A stretch of 64,000 nucleotides of DNA. It comes from a virus (taxonomy: Duplodnaviria; Heunggongvirae; Uroviricota; Caudoviricetes). Each line of letters begins with the position of its first letter. The first letter of the stretch is position 1. This document shows, piece by piece, positions 5,353 through 38,728 of this stretch. The notes under the pieces were generated by a model. The model did not search any database. It was not told where the DNA came from and worked only from the letters and a program-made list of their open reading frames with translations. The position numbers and the translations under genes were made by a program. The stretch lies in IMG/VR virus record IMGVR_UViG_3300045256_000127, one strand, 5' to 3'.

Positions 5353-5376
5353 GCCTCCACTCCAACAGCAACACAC

Positions 5377-5425
5377 GGGGGCCAGGAACAAGCTACTGGC
5401 TATGTTCCTGGCCCCCGTTGTCTAT
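5377..5425 (+). terminator. stem-loop terminator after the SSB gene
   Basis: Perfect 14-bp stem gggggccaggaaca / tgttcctggccccc with a 12-nt loop. Confidence 0.55.
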
Positions 5426-5462
5426 ATGCGTCACTAACCACTTTACCAACTAGAGGGAACTT

Positions 5463-6683
5463 ATGGCTAAGAAGAAGAAAGACGAATTGAACGCAGACGA
5501 CGCTCTGTTTGAGGCACTTGCCGAAGCTACGGACGGCGACATTCTCGGCAAGATGGACTCAGTGAAGTATTTCGTGGACACCGGCTCGCTCGCAGTGAAC
5601 TTCATCTGCTCGGGCAAGTTCATTTCCGGTGGCGTCCCCGGTGGCAAGATCACCGAAATCTACGGGGCGTCCTCCTCCGGTAAGTCGCTCCTCGCAGCGA
5701 ACATCCTCCACGGCTGCCAGAAGCTCAGCGGCTTCCCGATCATCCTCGACTGTGAAAACGCCACCAACGGTGAGTTCATGGCGAAGACATCGCACCTGAA
5801 CCTGAACCGGGTCATCCGCTACACGCCGATGACACTGGAGCAGGCGTTCTTGAAGATGCTCAACGCCGCCAGGAAGATTCGGGAGAAGGTGAGTGTCGAA
5901 GTCCCCATCGTCTTCATCTACGACTCGATCTCGGTATCCCCGTGCGAGCGTGAACTGAAGGAAACCGAACTGCCGGAGAACTACAAGCCTTCCGACTGGA
6001 AGAAACTGGTGGGTCGCCAGGAGCAGCCGGGCGAGCGGGCGAAGGTGTGCAGCAAGGAGTTGCGTAAGCTCCAGGCCGTGATGGAAGAGATGAACATCAC
6101 GCTGGTCGTGCTGAACCAGACCCGTGAGAAGATCGGCGTCATGTACGGCAACCCGGAGACGACGGCCGGTGGCGGTAACGCCCTCCCGTTCTACGCTTCG
6201 TGCCGCCTGCGGACCGCAACCCGGAAGAAGATCGAGAACAAGCGTCTCGAAACGTTCGCCGGTGTGAACATGCACGTCAAGAACGTGAAGAACCGCAGCT
6301 TCCGCCCGTTCGTCGAGAGCGAGGGGATCAAGCTGTACTTCGACACGGGCGTGAACCCGATCTCGGGCCTGTTGTCCTGCTTCATCAACGGCGACCGTGT
6401 GAAGCCTGGGAGCGGCGGCAACTACGAAGTGGCCGAGGCGTACCTGCCGGAGAACACGCCGAGCTACAAGTTCAAGGCGGCTCGGGCCAACAACGACGTA
6501 CCGCTTCAGGTTCTCTACGACTGCCCGAAGCTGATCGACGCACGCTCGACCGAGGAAGTGAAGGAATACCTAGCCCCCTTCATGGACTCGATCACCAACT
6601 CCGAGAGCGACGACTTCGAAGAGAAGGCAGTGTCGTTCGACGTGGACGGCAACCCCATCGAGAGTGGCGGCGAAGAAGAGTAA
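5463..6683 (+). CDS. UvsX/RecA-family recombinase
   Basis: Walker A GGKITEIYGASSSGKS as in RecA (GRIVEIYGPESSGKT). RecA-like length and an acidic C-terminus. RBS AGAGGGAA. Confidence 0.85.
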   Translation: MAKKKKDELNADDALFEALAEATDGDILGKMDSVKYFVDTGSLAVNFICSGKFISGGVPGGKITEIYGASSSGKSLLAANILHGCQKLSGFPIILDCENATNGEFMAKTSHLNLNRVIRYTPMTLEQAFLKMLNAARKIREKVSVEVPIVFIYDSISVSPCERELKETELPENYKPSDWKKLVGRQEQPGERAKVCSKELRKLQAVMEEMNITLVVLNQTREKIGVMYGNPETTAGGGNALPFYASCRLRTATRKKIENKRLETFAGVNMHVKNVKNRSFRPFVESEGIKLYFDTGVNPISGLLSCFINGDRVKPGSGGNYEVAEAYLPENTPSYKFKAARANNDVPLQVLYDCPKLIDARSTEEVKEYLAPFMDSITNSESDDFEEKAVSFDVDGNPIESGGEEE

Positions 6684-15482: not shown

Positions 15483-15757
15483 TGCGTAACCACTGGCTGA
15501 AGCTTCACCGGCTGCGTGAAGCGAAGAGAAACTGCGAGGTTCACCTGTTCAGCGGGATGAAGACCCAAGACATTGTGGCAATCCTGCCGTTCGCCGACCA
15601 CATCGCATTCAAGCCGGACGAGTTGACCAGCGTGTCGGGCTTCATCATCATGCACAAGGGGAAGGACGTGATGTATCACTACTTCGCCCATACGTTCGTG
15701 ATGAAGAAGGGCGAAGTGCTGAACCTCGACTTGAGTAAGATCACGTTCCGGGTTTAA
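15482..15757 (+). CDS. hypothetical protein
   Basis: TAATG-overlapping start. Small ORF. Confidence 0.4.
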   Translation: MRNHWLKLHRLREAKRNCEVHLFSGMKTQDIVAILPFADHIAFKPDELTSVSGFIIMHKGKDVMYHYFAHTFVMKKGEVLNLDLSKITFRV

Positions 15758-16413
15758 CCTTCGTTAAGCTGCCGCTTGATCTTAGTCTTCAGCTTGCCGA
15801 TGCCGACTTCGGTCAGCACCATGAACTTCCAACCGAGCTTTTCTGCATGGGCGTCCATCGACGCCCATTTGCATTTGTTCTTCTCCAAGTCCGTCTGCTT
15901 GGCGGGCTTGATCTCCCAGATTTCGGTCGCCCCGTCGATGAAGCAAACCTTCAGGTCAGGGATGTAGTCGTGCCACTCGCCCCGGTAGGTGTATGGCACC
16001 TTGAACGGTTCGACGTAGAACGCCGCCACGTCCTTGTCCGAGTCCAGTAGTTCGTAAACCTCGCACTCGTACCCGGAGCGGTAGTGGAGCGGGGCGTTCA
16101 TCTTGGACGACATGTAAGTGCCGTCACGCACCTTCGGCTTGCGGGCCTTTCTCTTACCCTTCGAGTCGAAGTCGAACCAGACGGTGACGGTGTGTTGCAC
16201 ATCGCTCGGCATGACCCGGTTCGGGTGCTTGGCCTTGTAGTGGGCCTTCATGTCCCGGACGGGTGCCTCGCAGGCCGGACACTTGATCCATTCCCGGCCC
16301 TCGTCGTGTTTATCGTAGATGTGCCCCTTGTACTCGTCGTAGGAGGGGAAGAGTTCCCCGCATACGAAACAAGCCCATTTGCGAACATCCTTGCTTCCTG
16401 GCTTTTCGAACAT
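15754..16413 (-). CDS. C2H2 zinc-finger / PD-(D/E)xK nuclease fusion protein
   Basis: Two C2H2-like fingers (CFVCGELFPSYDEYKGHIYDKH and CPACEAPVRDMKAHYKAKH). C-terminal hPD...EIWEIKP nuclease core. The start overlaps the upstream stop as TAATG. Confidence 0.55.
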   Translation of the reverse strand: MFEKPGSKDVRKWACFVCGELFPSYDEYKGHIYDKHDEGREWIKCPACEAPVRDMKAHYKAKHPNRVMPSDVQHTVTVWFDFDSKGKRKARKPKVRDGTYMSSKMNAPLHYRSGYECEVYELLDSDKDVAAFYVEPFKVPYTYRGEWHDYIPDLKVCFIDGATEIWEIKPAKQTDLEKNKCKWASMDAHAEKLGWKFMVLTEVGIGKLKTKIKRQLNEG

Positions 16414-16820
16414 TACTCTCCCGGCCCTTGTAGATTCTGGACGAACCGCACGGCGTTCTTGATCTTGGTGTCGAGGCCGAGGGTGAGGATTTCCACGATC
16501 TCGTAAAGCTGCTTGGTCAAGCTCTCCCGGTTGGTGTGGGACAGCGGCCCGTCTTGGAGCGTGACCTGGGACACGTTGTCCTTCTTGGCGTCGAGGATGT
16601 ACTTGTACGACACGTTGCCCACCTGGGACTTCGTGATGGTGAACTCCCAATTGATCGTGGCGGCAGCGGGATCGACGCACTCGCTCGGCTGCTGCTCGGT
16701 GGACTTGAACTGCGTGTTGCCCAGGGCGCTCCAGGTGAGTGCCCGGCTCTTGGTCTTCTCGATCAGTTCCCGTACCAACGCTTCGTTGTACAGGTCTTGT
16801 AGGTCAAGCAGTGATGGCAT
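16413..16820 (-). CDS. hypothetical protein
   Basis: RBS GGGAGA upstream of MPSLLDLQ. Confidence 0.45.
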   Translation of the reverse strand: MPSLLDLQDLYNEALVRELIEKTKSRALTWSALGNTQFKSTEQQPSECVDPAAATINWEFTITKSQVGNVSYKYILDAKKDNVSQVTLQDGPLSHTNRESLTKQLYEIVEILTLGLDTKIKNAVRFVQNLQGPGE

Positions 16821-20056: not shown

Positions 20057-20959
20057 ATGCACGACGTTCTGTCCAATGTTCCGAATCTCCAGATCAACGT
20101 ACTCGACAAGGGGTTCGTTAAGCTCATCGACTCGATGCCCCGTCTTGTGCCCGAAACCCAGAAGACGGCCGACGCCGCCATCACCCAAGCCGCCCGTGTC
20201 TCCTACGGCGACGGCACCAAGTCCGTTAGTGAAGACCGTGGCCTGATCCGCTACCTCTACCGCCACACCCACACCACCCCGTTCGAGATGGTGGAGTTCA
20301 AGTTCCACTGTAAGATGCCGATCTTCGTGGCCCGGCAGTGGATTCGCCACCGCACCGCCAACGTGAACGAATACAGCGGCCGGTACTCCATCATGAAGGA
20401 CGAGTTCTACTACCCGGAAGAGGACAACATCCGCCAGCAGTCCAAGAACAACAAGCAGGGCGGCGACAAGGTGATGGAAGCCGTCGAAGCCCAGGAGTTC
20501 CTGGCGAAGCTCGACGAGGCGTGCCGGGGTGCCTATAACCTCTACACCGAGTTCGCCGACAAGGGCATGGCCCGTGAGCAGGTGCGGATGATTCTGCCCG
20601 TCAACCTATACACCGAATGGTACTGGAAAATCGACTTACACAACCTGTTCCACTTCCTCGGCCTCCGCTGCGACACCCACGCCCAATGGGAAATCCGGGT
20701 GTTCGCCGACGCCATGCTGGAACTCATCACCCCCATCGTCCCGTGGGCCGTCGAAGCCTGGAACGACTACCACGATCACCGTGGGGCTGTGAAGCTCACC
20801 CGCCTGGAGATCGAAGCCCTGCGGAAGACCATCTCGTATTGCGAAGTCCTTGACCGGGCTGCCGGTGGAAAGGTGAAGCTGATGCCACTAGATACTGATA
20901 ACAAACGGGAGCAGGCCGAGTGGGTGGCGAAGGCAGCCAAGTTTGGCCTGAAGGAGTAA
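20057..20959 (+). CDS. thyX: flavin-dependent thymidylate synthase ThyX
   Basis: ThyX signature RHRTANVNEYSGRYS (RHRX7S). RBS GAAAGGAG. Confidence 0.85.
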   Translation: MHDVLSNVPNLQINVLDKGFVKLIDSMPRLVPETQKTADAAITQAARVSYGDGTKSVSEDRGLIRYLYRHTHTTPFEMVEFKFHCKMPIFVARQWIRHRTANVNEYSGRYSIMKDEFYYPEEDNIRQQSKNNKQGGDKVMEAVEAQEFLAKLDEACRGAYNLYTEFADKGMAREQVRMILPVNLYTEWYWKIDLHNLFHFLGLRCDTHAQWEIRVFADAMLELITPIVPWAVEAWNDYHDHRGAVKLTRLEIEALRKTISYCEVLDRAAGGKVKLMPLDTDNKREQAEWVAKAAKFGLKE

Positions 20960-21270: not shown

Positions 21271-22641
21271 ATGGAAGCCGTCACCAAATTTCTGTCCAAA
21301 AACCGAGAACGAGAAGTCAAAGTCCATTGCTACGGCGATGCGATGATTGACGAATACTACGACGTGAAGGTGAACCGGATCAGCCCCGAGTTCCCCATGC
21401 CGATCATGCACTCCCAGCCGGGACAGCCCGTTGTAAGACCGGGCGGTGCCGCCAACGTCGCCTACCAACTGAAACACTTCAACGTAGACGCCACACTGAT
21501 CTCGTTCATTGACGAGCCGCTGGCGAACGTCCTCCGGCAACACCCGATGAGTTTCGTTGGCTCGCCGAACTTCTTAGGGCACGTCCCGGTCAAGCGGCGG
21601 TTCCTCGACGACGGCATCCAGGTCAGCCGGTGGGATACCGAGGCTAAGAACTACGGCCTGCCGGACCAGGAACTCTACTTCGCCCAACAGCGGCTTATGA
21701 ACAACATCCCCGGACTGAATGAAGACCCGGACGTGGTGATCCTGTCCGACTACGGCAAGGGGTTCTTTAACGACGCCCAGGCATGGCTCGCCGAACTTGA
21801 CGGGTTGATTACCATCGTGGACCCCAAGAACGGCCCTGTCGAGAAGTGGCGTGGCTGTAGCGTGTTCAAGCCGAACGCCAAAGAAGCCTACGAACTGAGC
21901 GGACTGACCGACTGGCGGAAGCAGTGTGAGTTCTTTGTTGAGAAACTAGGCTGCTGGGGCATCGTCATCACCCAGAGCGGCAACGGCTTCGTCGGGTACG
22001 AGGACGGCCGGTTCTTCGAGTACCGGGTGGATCACAAGTACAAGGTGGAGAGCGTGATCGGGGCGGGCGACTGCTTTGCGGCCATCCTCGGTGCGGCCAT
22101 CGCCCAAGACCTGAGTCTGGAGGAAGCCGCTCAGGTAGCGTTCAAGGCGGGGTCGGCCTACGTCCAGAACCGGCACAACCGGCCGATCATCCCAGCGGAA
22201 CTGGTGGACGGTAAGGTCGTCAACCCGGACGACCTATTGCACCACGACTTCAAGCTGGTCTTCACTAACGGCTGCTTCGACATCCTGCACCCTGGGCACG
22301 TCTCCATGCTGGAGTTCGCCAAGAGTAAGGGGGACAAGCTGGTGGTGGCGGTGAACTCAGACGAGAGCGTGCGGCGGTTGAAGGGACCGACGAGGCCGGT
22401 GAACGTTCTGGAAGATCGGATGGCGGTGTTAGAGGCGATGGAAGTGGTGGACTTCGTAGTGGCTTTTGAGGAGGACACGCCGATCAACGCAATCGAGCGA
22501 ATCAAGCCAGACGTACTGGTCAAAGGGGCAGACTACACCGTAGATCAGATTGTCGGTCACGACCTTGTTCCCGAAGTACATCGTGCCCCTATCATTGACG
22601 GTAAGTCCACCACTTCCATCATCAATAAGGTCACTTCTTGA
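21271..22641 (+). CDS. hldE: bifunctional heptose 7-phosphate kinase / heptose 1-phosphate adenylyltransferase (HldE/RfaE-like)
   Basis: N-terminal pfkB-type sugar kinase domain (GGAANVA, GAGDCF). C-terminal cytidylyltransferase-like domain with TNGCFDILHPGHV. Confidence 0.8.
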   Translation: MEAVTKFLSKNREREVKVHCYGDAMIDEYYDVKVNRISPEFPMPIMHSQPGQPVVRPGGAANVAYQLKHFNVDATLISFIDEPLANVLRQHPMSFVGSPNFLGHVPVKRRFLDDGIQVSRWDTEAKNYGLPDQELYFAQQRLMNNIPGLNEDPDVVILSDYGKGFFNDAQAWLAELDGLITIVDPKNGPVEKWRGCSVFKPNAKEAYELSGLTDWRKQCEFFVEKLGCWGIVITQSGNGFVGYEDGRFFEYRVDHKYKVESVIGAGDCFAAILGAAIAQDLSLEEAAQVAFKAGSAYVQNRHNRPIIPAELVDGKVVNPDDLLHHDFKLVFTNGCFDILHPGHVSMLEFAKSKGDKLVVAVNSDESVRRLKGPTRPVNVLEDRMAVLEAMEVVDFVVAFEEDTPINAIERIKPDVLVKGADYTVDQIVGHDLVPEVHRAPIIDGKSTTSIINKVTS

Positions 22642-23732: not shown

Positions 23733-23945
23733 ATGAGGTATTTCAAACTCCACAACAAGGAACGGGGCGTAGACTTCAAGATGGCCCCGTTCGGCGTATG
23801 GAACACGTCCAATCCCACCGAAGCTAAAGAAATGCTCCTGGCTTGCCGGGAATACCTCCGAGCCATCGGCCTCGATAACGTCTGCGAGCAGGTTGTTTTA
23901 CAAGACCTGGACACGGGCGAAGAATTGTCAGAAAATGCCTTGTAA
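23733..23945 (+). CDS. hypothetical small protein
   Basis: 70-aa ORF. Confidence 0.35.
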   Translation: MRYFKLHNKERGVDFKMAPFGVWNTSNPTEAKEMLLACREYLRAIGLDNVCEQVVLQDLDTGEELSENAL

Positions 23946-24007
23946 TGGAACGGCGAGTTCTGTTATAGTTCATCAATCGTGGCTTCATTAACAACGAAGG
24001 GCTAAGC

Positions 24008-26068
24008 ATGGAAAAAACAGCATTGACCAAATACTCTGCGGGCTTCGACCGCAAGAAGTACCTCGAACTGAACCAAGAGATGAGCTATGACGAGTACATC
24101 GCTCACGCTCTGAAGAACCCTCGGGTCGCACGGAACGCATTTCAGTACATCTACGACATGATTATGTCGAAGGGCACTTCGGAGTTCGAGCGATACCGCA
24201 AGACCTACACCCACTATAACTTCTTCGACGATCCCAAGATTCCGATCTACGGTCTTGAAGAAACACTCGACCAATTGGTGAACTTTATCCACGGGGCAGC
24301 CGGTGGGTACGGCACCGAGAAGCGGGTACTCCTTCTCCACGGCCCGGTCGGATCGGCAAAGTCCACGATCTGCCGCTTGCTTAAGAAGGGGTTGGAAGAA
24401 TACTCCAAGACCCGTGAGGGTGCTTGGTACAGTTATAAGTGGGTTAATCTACCCACGGAAGGCGAGTTCGCCGTCTCCACGACGACGGAAGACCCGTGCC
24501 CGCTGCACGAAGACCCGAGTCGTCTGATGGACCCGGACCAGCGTGAAGCGTTCTTCGCCGACCTGAACCTGTCCCTGGCCGAAGCATCCGGCGGGGAGGC
24601 ACCGTACAAGCTCCGCAGCGAAGGGGAAATGTGCCCCCGGTGCAAGACGTACATGAAGATGCTGCTGAAGAAGTACGACGGCGATTGGGACAAGATCGTC
24701 CGTGACCACATCCGTGTCGTCCGGCTCGTCCACAGCGAGATCGACCGGGTTGGCGTCGGCACCTTCCAGCCGAAGGACGAGAAGAACCAGGACTCGACCG
24801 AACTGACGGGCGACCTGAACTTCGGCAAGGTGAGCCACTACGGGTCCGACTCGGACAGCCGTGCCTTCAACTTCGACGGCGAGTTCTGCGTTGCCAACCG
24901 TGGCGTGATGGAATTCATCGAAATGCTCAAGTTGAGCAACGAGTTCCTTTACGACCTGCTGGGTGCCTCGCAGGAACACAACATCAAGCCGAAGAAGTTC
25001 CCGCAGGTCAAGATCGACCAGTTCATCGTGGGCCACACCAACCACGCCGAACTCGAACGCCTGCAAGGCAACCGCTTCATGGAAGCCCTCCGTGACCGGA
25101 CGGTGAAGATCGACGTGCCGTACCTGCTCCGCTGGACGGACGAGATCAAGGTGCTGGAGAGCGACTACGGTCCAGGCAAGGTGAAGCAGCACATCATGCC
25201 GCACACCCTGGAGATCGCAGCCCTCTTCGCAATCCTCACCCGTCTGAAGGACGACAAGGACGTGAAGCTCGACCTTCGGGACAAGGCCAAGCTGTACGAC
25301 GGCCGGGCACTGCCGGGCTGGACGGAAGACTCGGTAAAGGAACTGAGGGACAAGTACCCGACGGAAGGTCTGGATCAGGGCGTGTCCGCACGTTACATCC
25401 AAGACAAGATTTCGAACTGCTTGGCTCGTAGCGTCAAGGGTTACGTCAACGTCTTCCACGTTCTGAACGAACTGAAGGCAGGGTTCTACAACTCGTCCAT
25501 GATTGATGTCGAACACATCAAGAAGTACGAGGAAGCCCTGGACTTGGCGATCAAGGAGCTTCAGGAAATCCTGAAGGCCGAGGTTCAGAAGGCGTTGGTG
25601 GCCGACGAGAACATCATCGAACGGGTCTGTGCCAAGTACATTGACAACGTGGTGGCGTATGTCAACAAGGAAAAGATCATCAACCCGATCACCAAGCAGC
25701 CCCAGGAGCCTGATGAGCGGCTGATGCGGAGCATCGAAGAGAAGATCGACATCCCCGAGCAAGGTGCCAACGACTTCCGCCGGAGCTTGGCGTCGTTCAT
25801 CGGGACGCTGACGATCAAGAAGAAGGAGTTCCGGTGGGACAGCAACCCGGAACTGCGGCGTGCCCTTGAGGCGAAGGTGTTCGAGGACACCAGGGACTCC
25901 ATCAAGCTGTCGGCCCTCACGGGCGAGGCAGCGGCAGCCGACCCGGACAGCCGGGAAAAGCTGGAGGCCATCAAGGTCCGACTCATCAACCAGTACGGGT
26001 ACAACGAACAGTCCGCCACGGACGTTCTGGAATACGTCGCCAGCCTGTTCACGGGCGGCACCGACTGA
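24008..26068 (+). CDS. prkA: PrkA/YeaG-family serine protein kinase (AAA+ N-domain)
   Basis: Collinear with E. coli YeaG: Walker A LLLHGPVGSAKST (YeaG LYLLGPVGGGKSS) and CVANRGVMEFIEMLK (YeaG CRANQGIMEFVEMFK). About 686 aa, as in PrkA. Confidence 0.85.
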   Translation: MEKTALTKYSAGFDRKKYLELNQEMSYDEYIAHALKNPRVARNAFQYIYDMIMSKGTSEFERYRKTYTHYNFFDDPKIPIYGLEETLDQLVNFIHGAAGGYGTEKRVLLLHGPVGSAKSTICRLLKKGLEEYSKTREGAWYSYKWVNLPTEGEFAVSTTTEDPCPLHEDPSRLMDPDQREAFFADLNLSLAEASGGEAPYKLRSEGEMCPRCKTYMKMLLKKYDGDWDKIVRDHIRVVRLVHSEIDRVGVGTFQPKDEKNQDSTELTGDLNFGKVSHYGSDSDSRAFNFDGEFCVANRGVMEFIEMLKLSNEFLYDLLGASQEHNIKPKKFPQVKIDQFIVGHTNHAELERLQGNRFMEALRDRTVKIDVPYLLRWTDEIKVLESDYGPGKVKQHIMPHTLEIAALFAILTRLKDDKDVKLDLRDKAKLYDGRALPGWTEDSVKELRDKYPTEGLDQGVSARYIQDKISNCLARSVKGYVNVFHVLNELKAGFYNSSMIDVEHIKKYEEALDLAIKELQEILKAEVQKALVADENIIERVCAKYIDNVVAYVNKEKIINPITKQPQEPDERLMRSIEEKIDIPEQGANDFRRSLASFIGTLTIKKKEFRWDSNPELRRALEAKVFEDTRDSIKLSALTGEAAAADPDSREKLEAIKVRLINQYGYNEQSATDVLEYVASLFTGGTD

Positions 26069-26086
26069 TAAGCAGTAGCCCTGAGA

Positions 26087-26116
26087 AAGCCCGGCCAAGT
26101 GCCGGGCTTTTTCTTT
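26087..26116 (+). terminator. rho-independent terminator
   Basis: aagcccggc-caagt-gccgggctt followed by tttctttaat. Confidence 0.65.
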
Positions 26117-26151
26117 AATAGGACTTCCAAATGTAAGCCGGATTGTGTAAT

Positions 26152-26601
26152 ATGTTGGGCATGGGTGTTAGTCCATTCAAGCGGTCTTCCTCCGGCCCCC
26201 GACGAGCGTACTACCCGTCCGGCCCCTGGATCGACGAAAACGGCAAGCCGTGCAAGTCGCCGACTTACGCTGCTTCCGATTACGACAAGAAGAAGCGGAA
26301 GAAGACGGAGCCGCCGAACCCCGACCCGCACAACTACAAGTTCGTGCGTGTCGAGGAAGCAGATGGATTTCTCTTAGTCCAACTCAATTATCCTGACTGC
26401 ACCAACTATGAGGGGAACAAGATTCTTCTCTTCAGGGGTGTGAAGCTGATCGATCTGGTCAACCAGAAATACATCGACCCACACTTCTTCCAAGCGAAGG
26501 ATATCGCCTCCCCCATTGCCCGCTTCGTCCCCACGGAAGAGGGTTGGAAAATGGGCCTTACTTTAATCACAGCGTTGAAAGCGAGTACGAATGCCTCGTA
26601 G
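26152..26601 (+). CDS. hypothetical protein inserted between prkA and yeaH homologues
   Basis: ORF with coding composition. Start is MLGMG or MGV. TAATAT -10-like element just upstream. Confidence 0.4.
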   Translation: MLGMGVSPFKRSSSGPRRAYYPSGPWIDENGKPCKSPTYAASDYDKKKRKKTEPPNPDPHNYKFVRVEEADGFLLVQLNYPDCTNYEGNKILLFRGVKLIDLVNQKYIDPHFFQAKDIASPIARFVPTEEGWKMGLTLITALKASTNAS

Positions 26602-27787
26602 AATTCAAGAAGACCACAAAGACTTCCGGGACGTTGTAGGCGGACGTGTCCGTAGGGAACTGAAGAAGTTCCTGAAAGGGAAGGTCGTCCGCCTACGACC
26701 GAAGAACGGGAAGCTCCAGTTCACCATCCCGCAGATCGACCAGCCGCACTTCCTCCACGGGGACAACGGCGAGGGCGTCGGCCGGGGCAAGGGTAAGAAG
26801 GGTCAGGTCATCGGCCAAGACCCGCAAGAGGGCGATCCGCAGGCTGGCGAAGAACACGCCGACGGGATCACCATCCAGGTCGATCTCGAAGAAGTGTTGA
26901 AGGTCATGCAGGAAGAACTCGGCCTGCCGGACCTGAAGCCGAAGCCGTCGGAAGTGTACGAGGAAGTCAAGACGGTTTACAACGACATCTCGAAGGTCGG
27001 CCCGGAATCGCTACGCCACACCCGCCGCACGATGTACGAGGCGATGAAGCGGATGGCGATGATGGGCACGCTGGGCGAGAAGAAGATGCTCCCCGGCCAC
27101 TCCGTCCCGATGCGGGTCATCACCCTGGCCGACGGGGACCGCCGCTACCGTCAGTACAAAGAGATCAAGATTCCGTCGTCGAACGCCGTGGTGTTCTTCA
27201 TCCGGGACTACTCCGGGTCGATGGACGACTTCCGCTGCGACATCGTTTCCGACATGTCCTGGTGGATCGACGTGTGGATTCGCAAGTTCTACGAGCGGGT
27301 AGAGCGGGTCTACATGATCCACGACACGGAGGCCGAAGAGGTAGACGAGAAGAAGTTCTACGAAGTCCGGTTCGGCGGCGGCACCAAGATTTCGTGTGCC
27401 TTCGACGAGGCGGCGAAGATGCTGGAGAACCGCTTCCCGGCCCACAACTACAACATCTACGTCATCTACTTCTCTGACGGCGACAATTGGGAAGAAGACA
27501 ACGCCAAAGTGTCCGACCTGTTGGGTAAGAAGTTCCCGCCGGAAGTGGTGAACATGGTCGGGTTCGTGCAGATTTGCACCTACAACTACTCACGCAGTAT
27601 CAAGAAGTTCGTTGACGAACAGATCAAGACCGGGGCCATCGGCAAGAACGTCCGCACGGTTACGATTGGTGAAGAGTCCTCCGACAGCAGCAGCATGTTC
27701 GGCGGCGGCACGCTCATGACGCCCGAGGAGCGGGACGAGCAAATCCTGAAGGGAATCAAGACTCTGTTCGGTAAGGAGAAGAACTAA
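26591..27787 (+). CDS. yeaH: YeaH/YhbH-family DUF444 protein (vWA-like)
   Basis: FIRDYSGSMDD (YeaH CLMDVSGSMDQ) and YVIYFSDGDNWEED (YeaH YAAQASDGDNWADD). Gly/Lys-rich N-terminus as in YeaH. Confidence 0.8.
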   Translation: MPRRIQEDHKDFRDVVGGRVRRELKKFLKGKVVRLRPKNGKLQFTIPQIDQPHFLHGDNGEGVGRGKGKKGQVIGQDPQEGDPQAGEEHADGITIQVDLEEVLKVMQEELGLPDLKPKPSEVYEEVKTVYNDISKVGPESLRHTRRTMYEAMKRMAMMGTLGEKKMLPGHSVPMRVITLADGDRRYRQYKEIKIPSSNAVVFFIRDYSGSMDDFRCDIVSDMSWWIDVWIRKFYERVERVYMIHDTEAEEVDEKKFYEVRFGGGTKISCAFDEAAKMLENRFPAHNYNIYVIYFSDGDNWEEDNAKVSDLLGKKFPPEVVNMVGFVQICTYNYSRSIKKFVDEQIKTGAIGKNVRTVTIGEESSDSSSMFGGGTLMTPEERDEQILKGIKTLFGKEKN

Positions 27788-29388
27788 TGGCTATCAGCAA
27801 AATGTTGAACGGTTCGCCTATCCTGATGGGCAACAACAACGTGCCGGGCGTTCGCATTCACAAAGAAGTCATGGATGTCATGGACACCATCTTCAGTGAA
27901 TGCCGTAAGTTCGGCCTGGACTTCTACCCAACCATCGTCGAGTTCTTGACCTACGACGAAATCTCCGAGATCGCCTCATACGGCGGCTTCCCGATCCGCT
28001 ACCCGCACTGGAGCTTCGGGATGGAGTACGAGGAACTGTCCCGTGGGTACGAGTACGGCATGCACCGGATCAGCGAGATGGTTGTGAACAACAACCCTTG
28101 CTACATCTACTGCCTGGACTCGAACACGCTGGTGGACAACATCGACGTGATCGCCCACGCCCTCGGCCACAACCACTTCTTCAAGAACAACGTGTTCTTC
28201 AAGGGGACGCACACCGGCATGATGGGCAAGTTCGCCGACCATGCCCGCCGCATCCGTAAGTACATGGCCCGGTGGGGCAAGGAGCGGGTGACGGAGTTCA
28301 TCGACCACTGCCTGCGGCTGAACACGCTCATCGACCCGATGGACAACCTGTATCAGAAGCAGATCAACGACGTGATCGTCAGCGACCACCGGGAATACCG
28401 GACGCCGAACCGCCGTCACGCCTCGTCGAACTACATGGACGACTGGATCAACCCGGTCGAGTACATCAAGAAGGAGAACGAGAAGATCGAAAAGGCGGAC
28501 GCCGCCGACTACCTGGACATCTTCGACAAGCCGAACCGTAACATCTTCGGCTATCTGCGTGACCACGCCCCGCTCAAACCGTGGCAGCAGGACATCATCA
28601 GCATGCTGTACGAGGAGGCAATGTACTTCTCGCCGCAGCGGTTGACGAAGATGTTGAACGAAGGGTTCGCCTCGTACACCGACTACTACCTGATGTGCGT
28701 CCACGGGCTGTGCGGCCTCGGCCAGAAGCGGCACGACATGGGCATCATCCAGTACGCCAAGCACAAGATGTTGGTTTTGGGCGGCAAGTACAGCCAGAAC
28801 CCTTACAAGCTGGGCTTCGAGCTACTGACCGACATCGAGGAGCGGTGGAACAAGGGCCGCTTCGGTCGGGAGTACGAGGAGTGCAAGAGCATGAAGGAGC
28901 GGGCCGAGTGGGACAAGAAGCTCGGGCTGGGCAAGGAGAAGGTGTTCGAAGTCTGCCAGTTCTACAACGACGCCCTGGCGATTGCGGAATTCTTCACGCC
29001 GGACTTCTGCGAGAAGATGGAATACTTCGAGTACAAGAAGTTTAATAACGGCCAGACGAAGATTCAGAGCCGGGACTACCATAGTATTAAGTCGCAACTC
29101 GTCCGGCGTTACATGAATGGCGGGTTGCCAGATATTCGTCTGACCGACCCGAACCACCTGGGCAAAGGCTGGTTCCTCATGCAGCACTACGGTTGCGGGC
29201 TGCCGCTGTACGATCCTTACGCAAAGGAAACGATCACATCGGTGTTCCGCATCTGGGGTAGCCCCGTGGTTCTGGCTACGAAGAACCCGGACGGTGAGGA
29301 ATTCGTCTACCTCTGCGATGGGACGAACTCCGAGAAGGATGTTCACGTCATGAGACGGGCGGACTACGAGAAGGAGTTTGTCAAATGA
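27787..29388 (+). CDS. spoVR: SpoVR/YcgB-family protein
   Basis: Length about 530 aa and several conserved SpoVR blocks (FPIRYPHWSFGMEYEEL, IAHALGHNHFFKNN, WQQDIISMLYEEAMYF). Start ATG overlaps the yeaH stop as TAATG. Confidence 0.8.
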   Translation: MAISKMLNGSPILMGNNNVPGVRIHKEVMDVMDTIFSECRKFGLDFYPTIVEFLTYDEISEIASYGGFPIRYPHWSFGMEYEELSRGYEYGMHRISEMVVNNNPCYIYCLDSNTLVDNIDVIAHALGHNHFFKNNVFFKGTHTGMMGKFADHARRIRKYMARWGKERVTEFIDHCLRLNTLIDPMDNLYQKQINDVIVSDHREYRTPNRRHASSNYMDDWINPVEYIKKENEKIEKADAADYLDIFDKPNRNIFGYLRDHAPLKPWQQDIISMLYEEAMYFSPQRLTKMLNEGFASYTDYYLMCVHGLCGLGQKRHDMGIIQYAKHKMLVLGGKYSQNPYKLGFELLTDIEERWNKGRFGREYEECKSMKERAEWDKKLGLGKEKVFEVCQFYNDALAIAEFFTPDFCEKMEYFEYKKFNNGQTKIQSRDYHSIKSQLVRRYMNGGLPDIRLTDPNHLGKGWFLMQHYGCGLPLYDPYAKETITSVFRIWGSPVVLATKNPDGEEFVYLCDGTNSEKDVHVMRRADYEKEFVK

Positions 29389-29903
29389 GTGAAGTCGTCG
29401 TCCCTTCACCAACGGTAAAGACCCCTCTACCCGAGGGGTCCGTTGCCCATGAGGGATTGGAAGTCATCGAAGGTTTCCTCAATACACTGGTTACGCAGTG
29501 GGAAACCGAGTACCAGAGCAAGAGCAAGTGGCTCTGGTTTTTCAAAGCCAAAGTCGGGCTGGCTAAGTGCGCCCGGTTCGTCGCCGGGGCCACGGACGGA
29601 TTCATCGTTCTGGCCGAAAGGGTGGGCGAAGCGGGGAGCGGACGGGCAAAGAAGACGCTTGTTACGAATGCCCTGGACCGCCTTTACACGAAGGTCGTGC
29701 AGCCCAATCTACCTTTGTGGCTGAAACCCGTGGGCTGGCTGATCCGGCTCGTGGTGATCCGGTTGATCCTCAGTACACTGATCGACTTCTGCGTCAGCAA
29801 GTACAACCAGGGCGATTGGAACGCCGAAAAGAAGGAAGCGGAAGTCCAGGCTTTGATCGCCCAGAACTTGATCTCACAAGGACTCAAGAAGCAGCAGTTT
29901 TAA
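29385..29903 (+). CDS. hypothetical protein (hydrophobic segment near the C-terminus)
   Basis: ATGA overlap with the spoVR stop. Confidence 0.45.
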   Translation: MSEVVVPSPTVKTPLPEGSVAHEGLEVIEGFLNTLVTQWETEYQSKSKWLWFFKAKVGLAKCARFVAGATDGFIVLAERVGEAGSGRAKKTLVTNALDRLYTKVVQPNLPLWLKPVGWLIRLVVIRLILSTLIDFCVSKYNQGDWNAEKKEAEVQALIAQNLISQGLKKQQF

Positions 29904-30241
29904 GCAACGCCGAGGGTGCCCGGTCCTGCGGGCATCTGATTCTGAAGCTCCGGTTCGCCCTGCGGGGTGGGCCGGGGCTTGTTTTTCCACCCGTCCCAAA
30001 TCTCGAACATTCGGTCACAAACTTTCTTCAGTTCACCCTTCTCGCCCTTCATGGCGTGGCGGATACGCTCCATGTGCCCGTCGATGGCCTGCACCCGGTC
30101 GAAATGCTCTTTGGGCTTGGTTTTTATCTCGTGCGAGTTAATTTGGGGCTGAAGGCCGGTGCGGATGACTTCCGCAGAAGCGGGCATCGCCGACGCTTTC
30201 GCCTCTAACTCTTCGTTCTCTAGCCACTGTCGGAATCGCAT
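29900..30241 (-). CDS. hypothetical protein
   Basis: Minus-strand ORF, convergent. Confidence 0.4.
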   Translation of the reverse strand: MRFRQWLENEELEAKASAMPASAEVIRTGLQPQINSHEIKTKPKEHFDRVQAIDGHMERIRHAMKGEKGELKKVCDRMFEIWDGWKNKPRPTPQGEPELQNQMPAGPGTLGVA

Positions 30242-30340
30242 GGAGGTATCTACTGGACAACTCGAATTTTCTTTGCTAACATTCCCCTGTTAACTGATCG
30301 CCGACGGTAAGGAAACCTCAAACAACGTAAGGAGACGACG

Positions 30341-30988
30341 ATGGCGAAGAAGAAGACCGCAGTAGCAGCACAGGCAGTGGAAACCCCGGTTCTCGTGGAC
30401 ACGGTGCCGGACATCTCGAACCTGAGCGAAGACGCCCTCAGCCAACTGATCTCGGCTGCCAGCACCCGGCGGTACGAGTTGCAGAACGCCGGTTCGGCCG
30501 AGCGGGAGGAGAAGTACAACGAGGCGAAGAAGTCGGACAAGGTGAAGGCTCTCAAGGCCGAACTGAAGGAACTCAACAAGGAGTTCGCCGCTCTCTTGAA
30601 GAACGGCCACAAAGTCACCTACCAGCTTCCGCTCACCCTGACCGTCACCATCGACGCCTACGACGCCGACTACAACGGCGGCACGCTGGCCGAACAACTC
30701 GCCAACCAGGACTACTCCGACGTGGATTGGGACAACCTGTTCCAGATCAGCGTCGAGGGCGACCTGGGCCGGGGCGAACTGCCGAAGGACGTTCACTCAC
30801 TGATGCAGGAGAACCTGGAGAACGTGCTGGCAGACGCCTGCAATGAAGTCGCCCGGCTCACCCCGGACCTGACCAAGCAGTTCGACGCCTTCTGCAAGAA
30901 GGTCAACAAGTTCTCGGCGAAGGTCGTCAAGGCTGCCGAGGAGGTTGACCCGGACGGCTACCACTCGGTCGCCGACCTGCTCGACTAA
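30341..30988 (+). CDS. hypothetical protein
   Basis: RBS TAAGGAGA. A stem-loop follows at about 30998-31028. Confidence 0.5.
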   Translation: MAKKKTAVAAQAVETPVLVDTVPDISNLSEDALSQLISAASTRRYELQNAGSAEREEKYNEAKKSDKVKALKAELKELNKEFAALLKNGHKVTYQLPLTLTVTIDAYDADYNGGTLAEQLANQDYSDVDWDNLFQISVEGDLGRGELPKDVHSLMQENLENVLADACNEVARLTPDLTKQFDAFCKKVNKFSAKVVKAAEEVDPDGYHSVADLLD

Positions 30989-31058
30989 GCAGTAACCCCG
31001 ACGGCACGGGACGTTCCCGTGCCGTCTTCCCCCTCTACCCGTTTCTACAAGGAAGAAC

Positions 31059-33008
31059 ATGGACTTCGTGTTGTCCCACCCCTGGCTGATGGTAGGTGCG
31101 GGGGTGGCGTTCGTCCTCCTGCTCCTGGTCTGGCTCGGCGTCCGCTTCGTGGCGAACGACCGACTGGCAATCGTGGAAAAGCTGTGGGGCAGCAAGTCCC
31201 TCAGTGAAGGCGACATCATCGCCCTCAACGGCGAGGCGGGCTTCGAGCCGGACGTGAAGCGTGGTGGCTTCCACTTCGGCTACTGGCGGTGGCAGTTCAA
31301 GTTCCACAAGCGGAAGCTCATCACCATCAAGCAAGGCAAGATCGGCTACGTCTTCGCACGGGCCGGGAGTGCCCTGGCCCCGACCCAGACACTCGGCACC
31401 GTCGTCGAGTGCAACAACTTCCAGAACGCCCGTGCGTTCTTGAACAACGGCGGGCAGAAGGGTCGCCAGCGGGCCATCCTGCGTGAAGGCGTGTACGCCA
31501 TCAACCTCGCTGTGTTCAGCGTCATCGCCGACGACGGCGTGTACAGCCTGGACAACGACCGGAACCTGGAGTCGTGGCGTGAGCAACTGACCAACTGCCA
31601 CGGGTTCGACCCGGTGGTGGTCGGGCAAGACGCCGACGACATCGGCATCGTGACCACCCAGGACGGCCCGGCTCTGGATCAGGGCGAGATCATCGCCCCG
31701 GCCGTCGGGACGAAGAAGGACGACCCGAACTACCACTCGAACTTCCAAGACATCGAGAAGTTCCTGGCCGCAGGCGGGCGGCGTGGCCTCCAGTACGCCG
31801 TGCTGCTGGACGGGACGTACTTCATCAACCGCTGGTTCGCCGACGTGGAACTGAAGCCCAAGTTCGTCGTTCCCATCGGGAACGTCGGCGTGGTCGTCAG
31901 CTACTACGGCAAGCAAGGGACCGACACGAGCGGCACCAAGTTCCGCCACGGCGAGCGGGTCCACGAGGGCGAGCGGGGCGTGTGGGAAACCACGCTCGGT
32001 CCGGGCAAGTACCCGTTCAACCCCTACGCCGGGAACATCGTCCTGGTGCCGACCACGAACTTCGTGCTGCACTGGATCACGGGCAAGTCGGAAGGCCACA
32101 AGTACGACGAGAGCCTGAAGTCCATCGACCTGATTACGAAGGACGCCTACGAGCCGATCCTGCCGCTGAGCGTCGTGGTTCACTGCGACTACCAGAAGGC
32201 TCCGAACGTCATCCAGCGGTTCGGTGATGTTAAGCAACTCATCACCCAGACCATCGACCCGCTGCTGTCCGCCTTCTTCCGGGACGTGGCCCACAAGAAG
32301 ACGATGCTGGAACTCGTTCACAGCCGGGACGAGATTCAGAAGCAGGCTCGTGTCGAACTGCGGGACAAGTTCCAAGAGTTCGACATCGAGTGCATCGACG
32401 TGCTGATCGGTCGCCCGGAGAGTGCGAAGGGCGACGACAAGATCGAGAACCTGCTGGAACAACTCCGGCAGCGGCAACTGTCGCTCGAACAGATCGAGAC
32501 GTTCGGGAAGCAGGAAGCGGCTGCGGAGAAGCAGAAGTCGCTGAACGACGCCCAGAGCCGGGCCGTTCTCCAGAAGGAACTGACGGCATCGGCGATCAAG
32601 ATTCAGATCGCCGCCAACGACGCCGAAGCGAACCTCGCTCGGGCGAAGAAGGAAGCCGAACAGACCGTCGTCACCGCAGAGGCCGAAGCCAAGAAGCTCA
32701 GCCTCGAAGGTAAGGGTAAGGGCGAACTGATCCTGAGCGTCGGCCAGTCCGAGGCCGAAGTCCTCCAGAAGAAGATCGCCTCGTTCGGCGACAGCAACCT
32801 GTACGCCCTGAGCGTCATCGCCGAGTTCCTGTCCAAGAGCGAACAGCCGCTCGTCCCGGCGACGGTGCTGGGTGGCGGCGGGGACAACGCTGGCGTCCTG
32901 AGCCTGCTGATGAACCTGATGGTCAAGGAGAAGATCACGCCCCGAGACGACGGCGTGACGTTCCTCAGCACGAAGAACGGCAACGGGCACGTCGTCGAAA
33001 AGAAGTAA
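31059..33008 (+). CDS. flotillin-like SPFH/Band-7 protein (YqiK-like)
   Basis: N-terminal TM (WLMVGAGVAFVLLLLVWLGV), SPFH domain, then a long Ala/Glu coiled coil (AEAEAKKLSLEG...) and a GGGGDNAGVLSLLMN tail as in E. coli YqiK. Confidence 0.75.
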   Translation: MDFVLSHPWLMVGAGVAFVLLLLVWLGVRFVANDRLAIVEKLWGSKSLSEGDIIALNGEAGFEPDVKRGGFHFGYWRWQFKFHKRKLITIKQGKIGYVFARAGSALAPTQTLGTVVECNNFQNARAFLNNGGQKGRQRAILREGVYAINLAVFSVIADDGVYSLDNDRNLESWREQLTNCHGFDPVVVGQDADDIGIVTTQDGPALDQGEIIAPAVGTKKDDPNYHSNFQDIEKFLAAGGRRGLQYAVLLDGTYFINRWFADVELKPKFVVPIGNVGVVVSYYGKQGTDTSGTKFRHGERVHEGERGVWETTLGPGKYPFNPYAGNIVLVPTTNFVLHWITGKSEGHKYDESLKSIDLITKDAYEPILPLSVVVHCDYQKAPNVIQRFGDVKQLITQTIDPLLSAFFRDVAHKKTMLELVHSRDEIQKQARVELRDKFQEFDIECIDVLIGRPESAKGDDKIENLLEQLRQRQLSLEQIETFGKQEAAAEKQKSLNDAQSRAVLQKELTASAIKIQIAANDAEANLARAKKEAEQTVVTAEAEAKKLSLEGKGKGELILSVGQSEAEVLQKKIASFGDSNLYALSVIAEFLSKSEQPLVPATVLGGGGDNAGVLSLLMNLMVKEKITPRDDGVTFLSTKNGNGHVVEKK

Positions 33009-33091
33009 AGAAATTCGGCTAGGAAGCCGATACAATGGGCACGGGCGAAGATGCCCGTGCCTGTTTTGTTTCCAAACCAGGGAAGGTTAAC

Positions 33092-34462
33092 ATGTCGAAT
33101 ATGAAGCACCCCATCATGGGGTACGAGAACCTGCACCGCCACTCCGAGTACAGTCTGCTGGACGGGTTCGCAAAGGTCGGCGAGTACGCCGCCTACTCCA
33201 AAGAGGCAAACCAGCGTTACCTCTGCATCACCGACCACGGCGTCATGGGGGCCGTTCCGCAGCAGGTCGGCGAGTCCGAAAAGCACGGCCTGAAGCCCAT
33301 CTTCGGCATCGAGTTCTACATCAACCCGATGCAGCCCAAGTCCGAGTACCGTGAGCAGAACGCCGAATTCCGTAAGGGGTTGGGCACCGAGGAAGAACAG
33401 AAGCGGTTCGACAAGAGTCACCACCTGCTCGGCATCGCCCGCACCAACCAGGGCTACACCAACCTCGTGCGGCTGAGTACCTGGGCCTGGGTTCACGGCT
33501 ACTACCGTCGGCCCCGCATCAACCACGACATCCTGAATCAGTACAAAGAAGGGATCATCTTCACGAGTACCTGTGCCAACAGTGAAATCGCCAACGCCTT
33601 CTTCGACCACGGCGAGGAAGCGGGGATGGCGAAGGTGCAGCAGTACATCGACTTCTTCGGGAAAGAGAACTTCTTCCTCGAACTGATGATGCTCGACTTC
33701 AAGATGCAGAAGCCCTACGACGCCTTCCTGCTACGGGCGATGGATCGGTTCGGCCTGCAAGTCCTGCTCTCCACCGACTGCCACTACTGCAAGAAGGAAC
33801 ACGCCCTGAACCAGCGGATGATGCTCATGGTTCAGACGGGCCGGACCATGCAGGAGATCGAAGCCCTCGTCGCTTCGGGTGCGGCCGACGACCTGTTCGA
33901 GCTTCAGGACACGAACCTGTGGATGAAGACCGAAGATGAGATGAACCAGATGTGGGAGGAGAAGTACCAGGACACCATCGACTACGAAATCTTCAAGTGT
34001 GCGAAGGCGAACACGGTGAAGGTGTGCGAGATGTGTGCCGGGGTGCAGATCGACCGGGGCATCAAGCTGCCGATTGAGGAAGACGAAAAGAAGCAGTTGA
34101 TGAAGTTGATCCGGGAGGGCGTGGACCGGCGGAAGGTGCCGATGACCCGCCAGTACCTTGACCGAATCAAGGAAGAGTACCAACTGATCTGTGACAAGGG
34201 GTTCGCCTCGTACTTCCTGATTCAGAAGAAGATGGTGGATGAGGCGTTGCGGGTGTGCCCGGAGATTTACGGGTTTCAGGACTCGTCGATGGCCCGAGGG
34301 CCGGGGCGGGGGTCAGTAGGCGGCTCGCTGGTCGCCTACTGTCTGGACATTCACGATCTCGATCCGATCAAGCACGGGCTGCTGTTCTCTCGGTTCCTCA
34401 GCCCGGCTCGTGGTGGTAAGCAGATGAAAACTCGCTTCTCGCTTAGCCCCTGCGGCGGTTAA
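33092..34462 (+). CDS. dnaE: DNA polymerase III alpha (DnaE) N-terminal fragment: PHP domain to the GPGRGS helix
   Basis: PHP motif LHRHSEYSLLDG. DnaE hallmark GPGRGSVGGSLVAYCLDI...FLSPAR. Ends 16 aa after FLSPAR, before the catalytic PDxDxDF. Confidence 0.8.
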   Translation: MSNMKHPIMGYENLHRHSEYSLLDGFAKVGEYAAYSKEANQRYLCITDHGVMGAVPQQVGESEKHGLKPIFGIEFYINPMQPKSEYREQNAEFRKGLGTEEEQKRFDKSHHLLGIARTNQGYTNLVRLSTWAWVHGYYRRPRINHDILNQYKEGIIFTSTCANSEIANAFFDHGEEAGMAKVQQYIDFFGKENFFLELMMLDFKMQKPYDAFLLRAMDRFGLQVLLSTDCHYCKKEHALNQRMMLMVQTGRTMQEIEALVASGAADDLFELQDTNLWMKTEDEMNQMWEEKYQDTIDYEIFKCAKANTVKVCEMCAGVQIDRGIKLPIEEDEKKQLMKLIREGVDRRKVPMTRQYLDRIKEEYQLICDKGFASYFLIQKKMVDEALRVCPEIYGFQDSSMARGPGRGSVGGSLVAYCLDIHDLDPIKHGLLFSRFLSPARGGKQMKTRFSLSPCGG

Positions 34463-38326: not shown

Positions 38327-38720
38327 GGGGCCGCTCCGGTATCGAACCGGCGTCAACGGCCGAAAGGACTTGCGTAGTGGTTGGTCGGTGGGCCACTTAA
38401 AAAAGCCGACTAAGCCTTAACTGGCGATACTCTCAGAATGGCTGCCTGAGTTGTGCCCTCGCAAGGGGGCACCGCAATAGCGGCCAAATGAGTCTTCGGA
38501 CTCAGGGACTCACAGAAGCGATGCTCCAAGCGTCTGTGTTTCTCACGCCAAAAAGGAGACGAAGCCTAGTGAGTGTCGGTTGTAGCTAGGCGGGTCGCTA
38601 ACCGAGAATCCCGGTGGTTTTGCCAGTTGTACGGCACCGTGGATTATCAACAACTGGATACACGCATAAACGCCTTCGGAAGTTCGCTTGGTCACAGGGG
38701 TTCGACTCCCCTCGGCTCCA
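38327..38720 (+). ncRNA. ssrA: tmRNA (SsrA)
   Basis: 5' GGGGCCGCUCCGGUAUCGAAC and 3' GGGGUUCGACUCCCCUCGGCUCCA are collinear with the E. coli tmRNA ends. The acceptor stem pairs with a G3-U70 wobble (alanine identity). CCA is not encoded. About 394 nt. Confidence 0.75.
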
Positions 38721-38728
38721 CTAAGAAA

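Follow-up and report, generated by a model that had tools for sequence, protein, structure and literature searches.

In bacteria, the yeaG-yeaH-ycgB genes (prkA-yhbH-spoVR) are among the most widespread gene sets whose molecular function is still unknown. The three genes form one operon in most bacteria and are mutually cofit (r > 0.7) in six bacteria (10.1101/072470). The bacterial module has been linked to stress responses that depend on guanosine tetraphosphate (ppGpp) (PMC3188799), and its homologues have been linked to sporulation in Bacillus (PMC4605624; PMC9512850; PMC13001217). All three genes are also known from published phage genomes. In Thermus phage phiYS40 (2006), gp56 is a DUF444 protein ("conserved bacterial protein"), gp57 is SpoVR and gp59 is a serine kinase, and Thermus phage MN1 carries the three genes annotated side by side. 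Thermus phages TMA, phiLo and Lalka, also counted as carriers, have matches to PrkA and DUF444. In the Ralstonia jumbo phage RsoM2USA, PrkA, DUF444 and SpoVR are ORF30, ORF29 and ORF28; the paper on this phage has PrkA and SpoVR as table entries, considers each gene by itself and places SpoVR under replication, recombination and repair (PMC8504454). The uncultured huge phages LR745206, LR756502 and LR756504, like LR756511, have all three genes, and PHROGs contains one family for each protein, all labelled "unknown function". Here we describe this triad in a 64,000-nucleotide stretch of viral DNA, IMG/VR record IMGVR_UViG_3300045256_000127, which we call the window. The phage is a further member of a kind already known. 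Our addition is that the triad is near-core in the largest phages and has been captured repeatedly as a unit, and that its SpoVR protein may be zincin-like.

The initial annotation of the window, made from its letters, had proposed a complete triad in a phage genome, packaged with a flotillin and without a place in described phage biology. The complete, intact triad and the phage contig stood up, but the novelty and the flotillin as part of the package did not. The claim of novelty was overstated because the triad is already annotated in phiYS40 and MN1 and is present in RsoM2USA, in huge phages and in PHROG families. Our literature search, which did not reach the phiYS40 genome paper, found no paper that handles the phage triad as a module. 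The triad is not mentioned in the main text of the huge-phage paper (PMC7162821) or in a broad survey of jumbo phages (PMC7824862).

Three consecutive genes on the plus strand of the window encode members of the PrkA, DUF444 and SpoVR families, with Pfam E-values of 1e-65 to 1e-104 (Table 1). Searches with the hidden Markov models PF08298, PF06798, PF04285 and PF04293, which had been suggested as a check, all gave scores far above threshold: 260 bits (PF08298) and 226.5 bits (PF06798) for PrkA against a gathering cut-off of 25, 221 bits for DUF444 against 27, and 349 bits for SpoVR against 27. PrkA also matched phrog_22605 (1.8e-105) and DUF444 matched phrog_19072 (3.5e-70). The triad shares with the bacterial module the three Pfam families, their order and strand, and the Walker, MIDAS (metal ion-dependent adhesion site) and SpoVR core motifs. 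Identity to the E. coli proteins is only 25-27% (25% for PrkA and YeaG), and the scores fall under the NCBIfam equivalog cut-offs (PrkA, NF011999, 190 bits vs 576; DUF444, best 291.5 vs 388; SpoVR, NF008737, 175 vs 679). Unlike the bacterial module, the triad is phage-borne, has an unrelated open reading frame (ORF) after PrkA and lies within a block of replication genes. It also has no identifiable sigmaS, NtrC or sigmaE control, only a generic sigma-70-like match upstream.

The functional motifs of the first two proteins are intact. PrkA contains a Walker A motif with its Lys (GPVGSAKS, aa 112-119), as the initial annotation had asked to see, and a Walker B-like motif (EFIEM, E302/E305), both invariant across the window, LR756511, E. 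coli YeaG, phiYS40 and RsoM2USA. In Bacillus subtilis PrkA, the Walker A Lys (K108) is needed for ATP binding and sporulation (PMC9512850). The MIDAS residues of DUF444 (D206-x-S208-x-S210, T265 and D296) are all invariant in the alignment. The window PrkA is of the long form and matched the long-form bacterial PrkA of PDB entry 9xip, its nearest relative of solved structure, over aa 11-682 (7.6e-209, 52% identity). Entries 9xip, 9xiq and 9xir are recent "Serine protein kinase" structures of 692 aa with 30 chains in all; our literature search found no paper on them. By eye, T267 of the window PrkA (NQDSTELTGD, aa 261-269) aligns with B. subtilis PrkA T217, a PrkC phosphosite (peptide ...DLTGS..., PMC9512850), and B. 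subtilis S219 corresponds to Asp269.

The window derives from the genome of a huge phage, and contigs of its relatives reach 0.6-0.69 Mb. Of the viral genes named in the initial annotation, gp32, UvsX, a split DnaE and a transfer-messenger RNA (tmRNA) were confirmed, and the window also encodes ThyX, a DEAD helicase, a TnsA-like endonuclease, an HldE-like enzyme, an ADP-ribosylglycohydrolase and HNH endonucleases. When the 9-kb block was compared with phage records by megablast, nothing matched, and relatives surfaced only in protein-level searches. The closest phage genome is that of the 595-kb uncultured huge phage LR756511, which is curated and complete and keeps the order TnsA-like (38% identity), HldE-like (48%), PrkA (59-60%), DUF444 (49%), SpoVR (57%) and the N-terminal half of DnaE (DnaE-N; 46%). 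LR756511 and its IMG/VR relatives belong to the same clade as the window, with these genes syntenic at 38-74% identity; they differ from it in lacking a flotillin-like gene at this place and the small ORFs o152 and o172, and many have ThyA. A search of a large protein collection yielded more than 120 PrkA clusters at 64-97% identity. All the contexts that we inspected, on contigs of 154, 220, 664 and 686 kb, shared one gene order: TnsA-like, thymidylate synthase, HldE-like, small ORFs, PrkA, DUF444, a variable insert, SpoVR, other genes and DnaE-N. L094, which is closely related to the window but comes from a different sample, keeps DUF444, SpoVR, three small ORFs, the flotillin-like gene and DnaE-N in the window order.

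These comparisons also bear on whether the block is bacterial DNA, brought in by chimeric assembly or belonging to a chromosome or prophage mistaken for phage sequence. Members of all three families come overwhelmingly from bacteria, and the 64-kb window contains no clear virion gene, only a weak match to a tail protein. However, the block is flanked by gp32, UvsX, split DnaE and HNH genes, its guanine plus cytosine (GC) content is even across the module (0.56-0.58), and the nearest PrkA relatives with inspected contexts are all in phage surroundings. The continuity of the assembly across 23-34 kb, which the initial annotation wished to have checked, is borne out by the same gene order on dozens of independent contigs from other samples, up to 686 kb, as well as on LR756511. 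Because of this synteny, the order in L094 and the even GC, a chimeric join or bacterial origin is excluded short of read-level data, and we give it a negligible probability.

The triad behaves as one unit across the clade. In each of the approximately 70 PrkA-anchored IMG/VR loci with enough downstream DNA, the order was PrkA, DUF444, SpoVR and then DnaE-N. To guard against circularity we also used an independent marker and gathered loci by DnaE-N in an alignment-based scan (a scan with a single DnaE-N protein gave none). Among the 66 loci chosen in this way that had at least 9 kb of upstream DNA, SpoVR was found within 10 kb upstream in 60 and all three genes in 53. Between the window and L094, the proportions of nonsynonymous (pN) and synonymous (pS) differences were 0.031 and 0.68 for SpoVR and 0.074 and 0.80 for DUF444, compared with 0.044 and 0.66 for DnaE-N; synonymous sites are saturated in this pair (pS 0.58-0.80). 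By these proportions, purifying selection on the triad is strong, with SpoVR constrained to the same degree as the N-half of DnaE.

The three genes share one strand. DUF444 overlaps the preceding, inserted ORF by 11 nt and SpoVR by 1 nt. As signals of an operon, a promoter-like match precedes PrkA and a terminator-like hairpin with a T-run follows the small ORF o172 downstream of SpoVR. This hairpin probably ends a transcription unit that runs from PrkA to o172. We considered o172 as a conserved fourth component and rejected it; L094 alone has a homologue, and other clade members have different genes behind SpoVR.

Table 1. Positions of the features of the 64,000-nt window that are discussed in the text.
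Feature	Position	Strand	Description and support
gp32	4327-5352		
RecA/UvsX	5463-6683		
TnsA-like endonuclease	15754-16680	-	Zinc-finger matches; same relative position in many clade members, 36-58% identity
ThyX	20057-20959		PF02511
HldE-like enzyme	21271-22641		Bifunctional heptose-7-phosphate kinase / heptose-1-phosphate adenylyltransferase; NF008454 2.4e-83, under equivalog cut-off
Sigma-70-like promoter match	23940-23969	+	TTGTAA-18-TATAGT, TG extended; 39 nt 5' of PrkA start; match to consensus only, may not be the promoter type of the host or phage
PrkA-family AAA+ ATPase ("serine protein kinase"), long form	24008-26068	+	686 aa; PF08298 4.3e-77, PF06798 5.9e-67
Inserted phage ORF o152	26143-26601	+	152 aa; TTG start, ATG at 26152 inside; phrog_13501 1.1e-25
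DUF444 (YeaH/YhbH) vWA-like protein	26591-27787	+	398 aa; PF04285 3.1e-65
SpoVR/YcgB-family protein	27787-29388	+	533 aa; predicted zincin-like core; PF04293 3.5e-104
ORF o172	29385-29903	+	172 aa; predicted membrane segment (hydrophobic window aa 111-140); 4-nt overlap with SpoVR stop
Strong terminator-like hairpin	29945-29980	+	16 pairs plus T-run; directly 3' of o172
SPFH/Band_7 (flotillin-like) membrane protein	31059-33008	+	649 aa; PF01145 2.5e-17, aa 270-484
Terminator-like hairpin	33034-33065	+	14 pairs; directly 3' of the SPFH gene; overlaps the longest-ORF DnaE-N start at 33035
DnaE N-half	33035-34462		PHP and start of pol3-alpha domain
tmRNA	38327-38721		ARAGORN; predicted tag peptide GDTLRMAA*
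DnaE C-half	46626-49286		Rest of pol3-alpha, finger domain, HHH
Weak tail-protein match	62360-63445		

A PrkA relative is encoded on at least 299 IMG/VR contigs, and a neighbour-joining tree of PrkA proteins separates the phage carriers. The PrkAs of the window clade are monophyletic and adjoin long-form bacterial PrkA, including PDB 9xip. Those of RsoM2USA, LR745206, LR756502 and LR756504 group with E. coli YeaG; they are of the proteobacterial YeaG type, are 23-27% identical to the window protein and, in LR756502, are accompanied by a SpoVR homologue approximately 240 kb away, unlike in the window. The Thermus phage PrkAs branch alone, which argues that the Thermus phage triad is an independent capture. 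In these phages, with genomes of 70-180 kb, PrkA is 29-33% identical to that of the window and the order is DUF444, SpoVR, PrkA, with a 616-aa ORF between SpoVR and PrkA in phiYS40. A second, unrelated group of IMG/VR loci (L083-L092) has PrkAs 47-48% identical to that of the window in a tightly packed PrkA-DUF444-SpoVR array. In the one locus of this group that we scanned (L091, IMGVR_UViG_3300021085_002355), the triad is followed by genes for a DNA methylase, gp32, RecA/UvsX, a 5'-3' exonuclease and DnaB, and a PolA fragment lies upstream. Because the triad sits among PolA, gp32, UvsX, exonuclease and DnaB genes, we take this group to be phages as well. Taken together with the gene contexts, the tree indicates that large phages captured the triad on at least four separate occasions, complete every time. 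The donor of the window clade is not named by a GTDB scan with the single PrkA, which returned only short-form PrkAs at 37-41% identity from Chloroflexota, Pyrinomonadaceae and Bacillota, since this exact-peptide-pattern search missed closer long-form proteins such as PDB 9xip.

Alignment of SpoVR proteins from E. coli YcgB to the Thermus phages showed that H74, W75, G78, E97, H124, H128, E292, G293, A295 and N338-P-Y are invariant. In an AlphaFold2 (AF2) model of the window protein (predicted local distance difference test (pLDDT) score 81.5), H124-A-L-G-H128 lies on one helix and L-N-E292-G-F-A-S-Y on a second. The match list for SpoVR was dominated by zincin-type metallopeptidases, including M1 aminopeptidases, M32 carboxypeptidases, M30 lugdulysin, thermolysin, collagenases, DUF885 and MATCAP. 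The motif on the second helix resembles the "WLNEGFA" motif of M1 peptidases, which carries the third zinc ligand. H124-A-L-G-H128 resembles HExxH but has Ala in place of the catalytic Glu, and the downstream E292, in an NEGFA-like motif, is conserved. E. coli YcgB has HACYGH, a different His spacing from the phage protein. Foldseek and hhalign did not confirm the likeness to zincins, so we rate it only as a lead, and our literature search found no paper that links SpoVR to zincins. SpoVR may be zincin-like, retaining both His and also the Glu that would make up a gluzincin-like metal site, without the catalytic Glu of HExxH. This prediction provides a concrete, testable biochemical hypothesis.

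Most likely, an ancestor of the clade captured the triad from bacteria with long-form PrkA, and the triad has since been inherited vertically at a fixed position between the HldE-like gene and DnaE-N, in a block of replication and nucleotide-metabolism genes. Positions 24008-29388 probably form one transcription unit, and we propose that its three products act as one self-contained machine, as they may in bacteria. PrkA would be an ATP-driven AAA+ motor, DUF444 a vWA/MIDAS adaptor and SpoVR a zincin-like subunit, together remodeling or processing target proteins. During a long infection of a slow-growing and often nutrient-limited host, such a machine could let the phage set or override the starvation or stationary-phase state. 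FtsH, MoxR-vWA pairs and CLCA (zincin plus vWA) share the domain logic of such a machine (AAA+ motor, MIDAS vWA, zincin-like domain). The likeness is a fold-level analogy only; the window has the three domains on three proteins, and its SpoVR is without the catalytic Glu of HExxH. Since exactly these three genes are what phages take, the machine probably needs no further component, and common host proteins are its probable targets. That an intact phage triad is vertically inherited and the flotillin-like gene is separate is, in our judgment, very likely. Control of the host state by an AAA+/vWA/zincin-like machine is a more tentative proposal that we place somewhat short of an even chance. Taken as a whole, description and function together, this explanation seems to us a little better than evenly balanced. 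Its most far-reaching form, in which a self-contained protein-processing triad, captured whole at least four times and near-core in a clade of 0.6-0.7 Mb phages, dictates growth arrest or starvation in the host, is doubtful. The earlier suggestion that the phage installs its own copy of a host starvation or dormancy pathway is plausible and describes a putative function.

The main rival to this proposal is a phage-intrinsic role, in which the triad would act, for instance, in the quality control or assembly of the replication machinery, of a replication compartment or of very large virions, and would leave host starvation signalling alone. The neighborhood of the triad is constant in the window clade, between HldE/Thy and DnaE, and in L091-type phages it lies beside PolA, gp32, UvsX, the 5'-3' exonuclease and DnaB. 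It adjoins a dNMP kinase gene in phiYS40; in MN1 it adjoins a dCTP deaminase gene and lies within approximately 3 kb of a gene for a single-stranded DNA-binding protein (SSB). The equal constraint on SpoVR and DnaE-N fits this view, as does the fact that AAA+/vWA pairs are typically assembly or maturation chaperones (MoxR-vWA and chelatase systems). Yet the bacterial module has its links with starvation, stress or sporulation, without any known replication role, and the position of a phage gene mirrors the timing of its expression as much as its function. We therefore regard a phage-intrinsic role as rather unlikely. A counter-defense or superinfection-exclusion system, as opposed to a physiological regulator, is far less probable still. 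Large phages accumulate such systems, and AAA+ and vWA domains occur in conflict systems, but no triad protein had a significant PADLOC match, leading us to drop the defense-system reading, and the very strong conservation (pN 0.03-0.07, pS saturated) and fixed position of the triad are unlike those of fast-evolving conflict genes.

Several observations weigh against host-state control by a protein-processing machine. The triad sits among replication genes in several unrelated phages, which fits a phage-intrinsic role at least as well. It is missing within 10 kb 5' of DnaE-N in six of the 66 loci (L192, L193, L201, L218, L219 and L224), three of which still have the HldE-like gene; thus, loss or relocation does occur even though the triad is near-core. 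Reports on the activity of PrkA conflict: YeaG is described as a kinase, B. subtilis PrkA has been reported to be an ATP-dependent protease (PMC9512850), and both kinase and protease activity of B. anthracis PrkA were negligible (PMC13001217). Peptidase activity of SpoVR is doubtful because of the Ala in place of the HExxH Glu and the different His spacing in YcgB, and the loop with the invariant H74-W75 has low confidence in the model. The assignment of a host, considered below, draws on a single gene, and the putative role of the phage copy is deduced from sequence.

Large phages have taken the whole triad and never single genes, and in one clade of the largest known phages the strength of selection on it matches that on the replicative polymerase. 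This combination argues for a machine that works on its own and on targets shared by many bacteria, and it adds the triad to the repertoire of huge phages as a candidate system for controlling the state of the host. If the host-state machine is real, the cultivable carriers phiYS40, MN1 and RsoM2USA offer a direct route to the biochemical function of the bacterial module.

The flotillin-like gene downstream of the module has a different history. As the initial annotation described, it encodes a protein with flotillin architecture: a hydrophobic transmembrane segment (aa 3-34), an SPFH/Band_7 domain and a long Ala/Glu-rich helix (A/E/K/Q fraction 0.48-0.58 over aa 451-550). The AF2 model was poor (pLDDT 61, predicted template modeling (pTM) score 0.36) and we used only its secondary structure, in which the helix spans 460-576 (approximately 115 residues) and approximately 240 beta-rich residues lie between the membrane helix and the Pfam-recognized SPFH core. 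E. coli YqiK and B. subtilis FloT share the membrane helix, Band_7 domain and Ala/Glu-rich helix, and the Joint Genome Institute (JGI) gives homologues of the window protein the YqiK COG name. The more specific label YqiK-like was not upheld, since BLASTP against E. coli YqiK was not significant (E 0.53) and no NCBIfam model matched. Apart from two probable phage copies, the nearest named relatives are chromosomal proteins of Planctomycetota, some on contigs of 3-9 Mb. The Schlesneria paludicola protein is 72% identical by local BLASTP (69% over the full alignment), those of Telmatocola sphagniphila and Gemmatales are 70-71% identical, and those of other named Planctomycetota are 65-71% identical. 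The copy in L094 is 85% identical, and no homologue was found in approximately 150 other related loci. Local GC is 0.61-0.63 over this gene compared with 0.56-0.58 over the upstream module, and the gene has its own terminator-like hairpin. The claim that it belongs to the package is contradicted by this hairpin, by its absence from the related loci and by its approximately 70% identity to Planctomycetota proteins, the last of which leads us to view it as a separate, recent, host-derived accessory gene. It is unrelated to the triad and is a recent pick-up from the host in a variable slot between SpoVR and DnaE, which in relatives contains ClpP, glycosyltransferases or methyltransferases. Judged from this gene, the host of the phage is probably a planctomycete, which gives a lead to the host (Planctomycetota) for a clade without cultured members. 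A different, shorter Band_7/SPFH protein (327 aa) is encoded beside DHFR at 5029-6012 of relative L007, which is without the SPFH gene of the window, and LR756502 has a 33% identical homologue of the window protein elsewhere in its genome. These phages thus seem to have acquired SPFH genes repeatedly.

The extra ORF that the initial annotation had noticed between PrkA and DUF444 is present, and its longest form, o152, contains the ATG from which it had been read. It has no Pfam match. Homologues of o152 were found in phiCbK-like Caulobacter and Brevundimonas phages and also in further huge phages, where they occupy unrelated positions, and none was found in 80 PrkA-anchored IMG/VR loci or in other related loci. 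Because its homologues occupy unrelated genome positions, we interpret o152 as a mobile phage ORF that landed inside the module and lies outside the conserved set. In L094, a DUF4379 protein is encoded directly 5' of DUF444. Both the PrkA/DUF444 and the DUF444/SpoVR junctions are insertion hot spots that contain unrelated ORFs in each relative (L009 13841-14875, L011 13524-14522, L012 13402-14740, L094 405-1364), encoding a methyltransferase, proteins of 332-344 aa without a recorded Pfam match, or the DUF4379 protein.

Other features of the neighborhood also recur. The HldE-like gene is kept just 5' of the triad across the whole clade. Since the hairpin behind the SPFH gene overlaps the longest-ORF start of DnaE-N, the true start is probably the Met at 33092 (MSNMKHP...). 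Approximately 12 kb separate the two DnaE halves and encode the ADP-ribosylglycohydrolase, the tmRNA, an HNH endonuclease and an AAA ATPase. The DnaE N-half ORF (456-481 aa) recurs in relatives, and the DnaE of LR756511 is unsplit and 1179 aa long (L002 29616-33155). The window and part of the clade encode ThyX, and other members have ThyA (PF00303) at that position (cf. L007, L009, L011 and L012); this alternation looks like non-orthologous replacement at a fixed locus.

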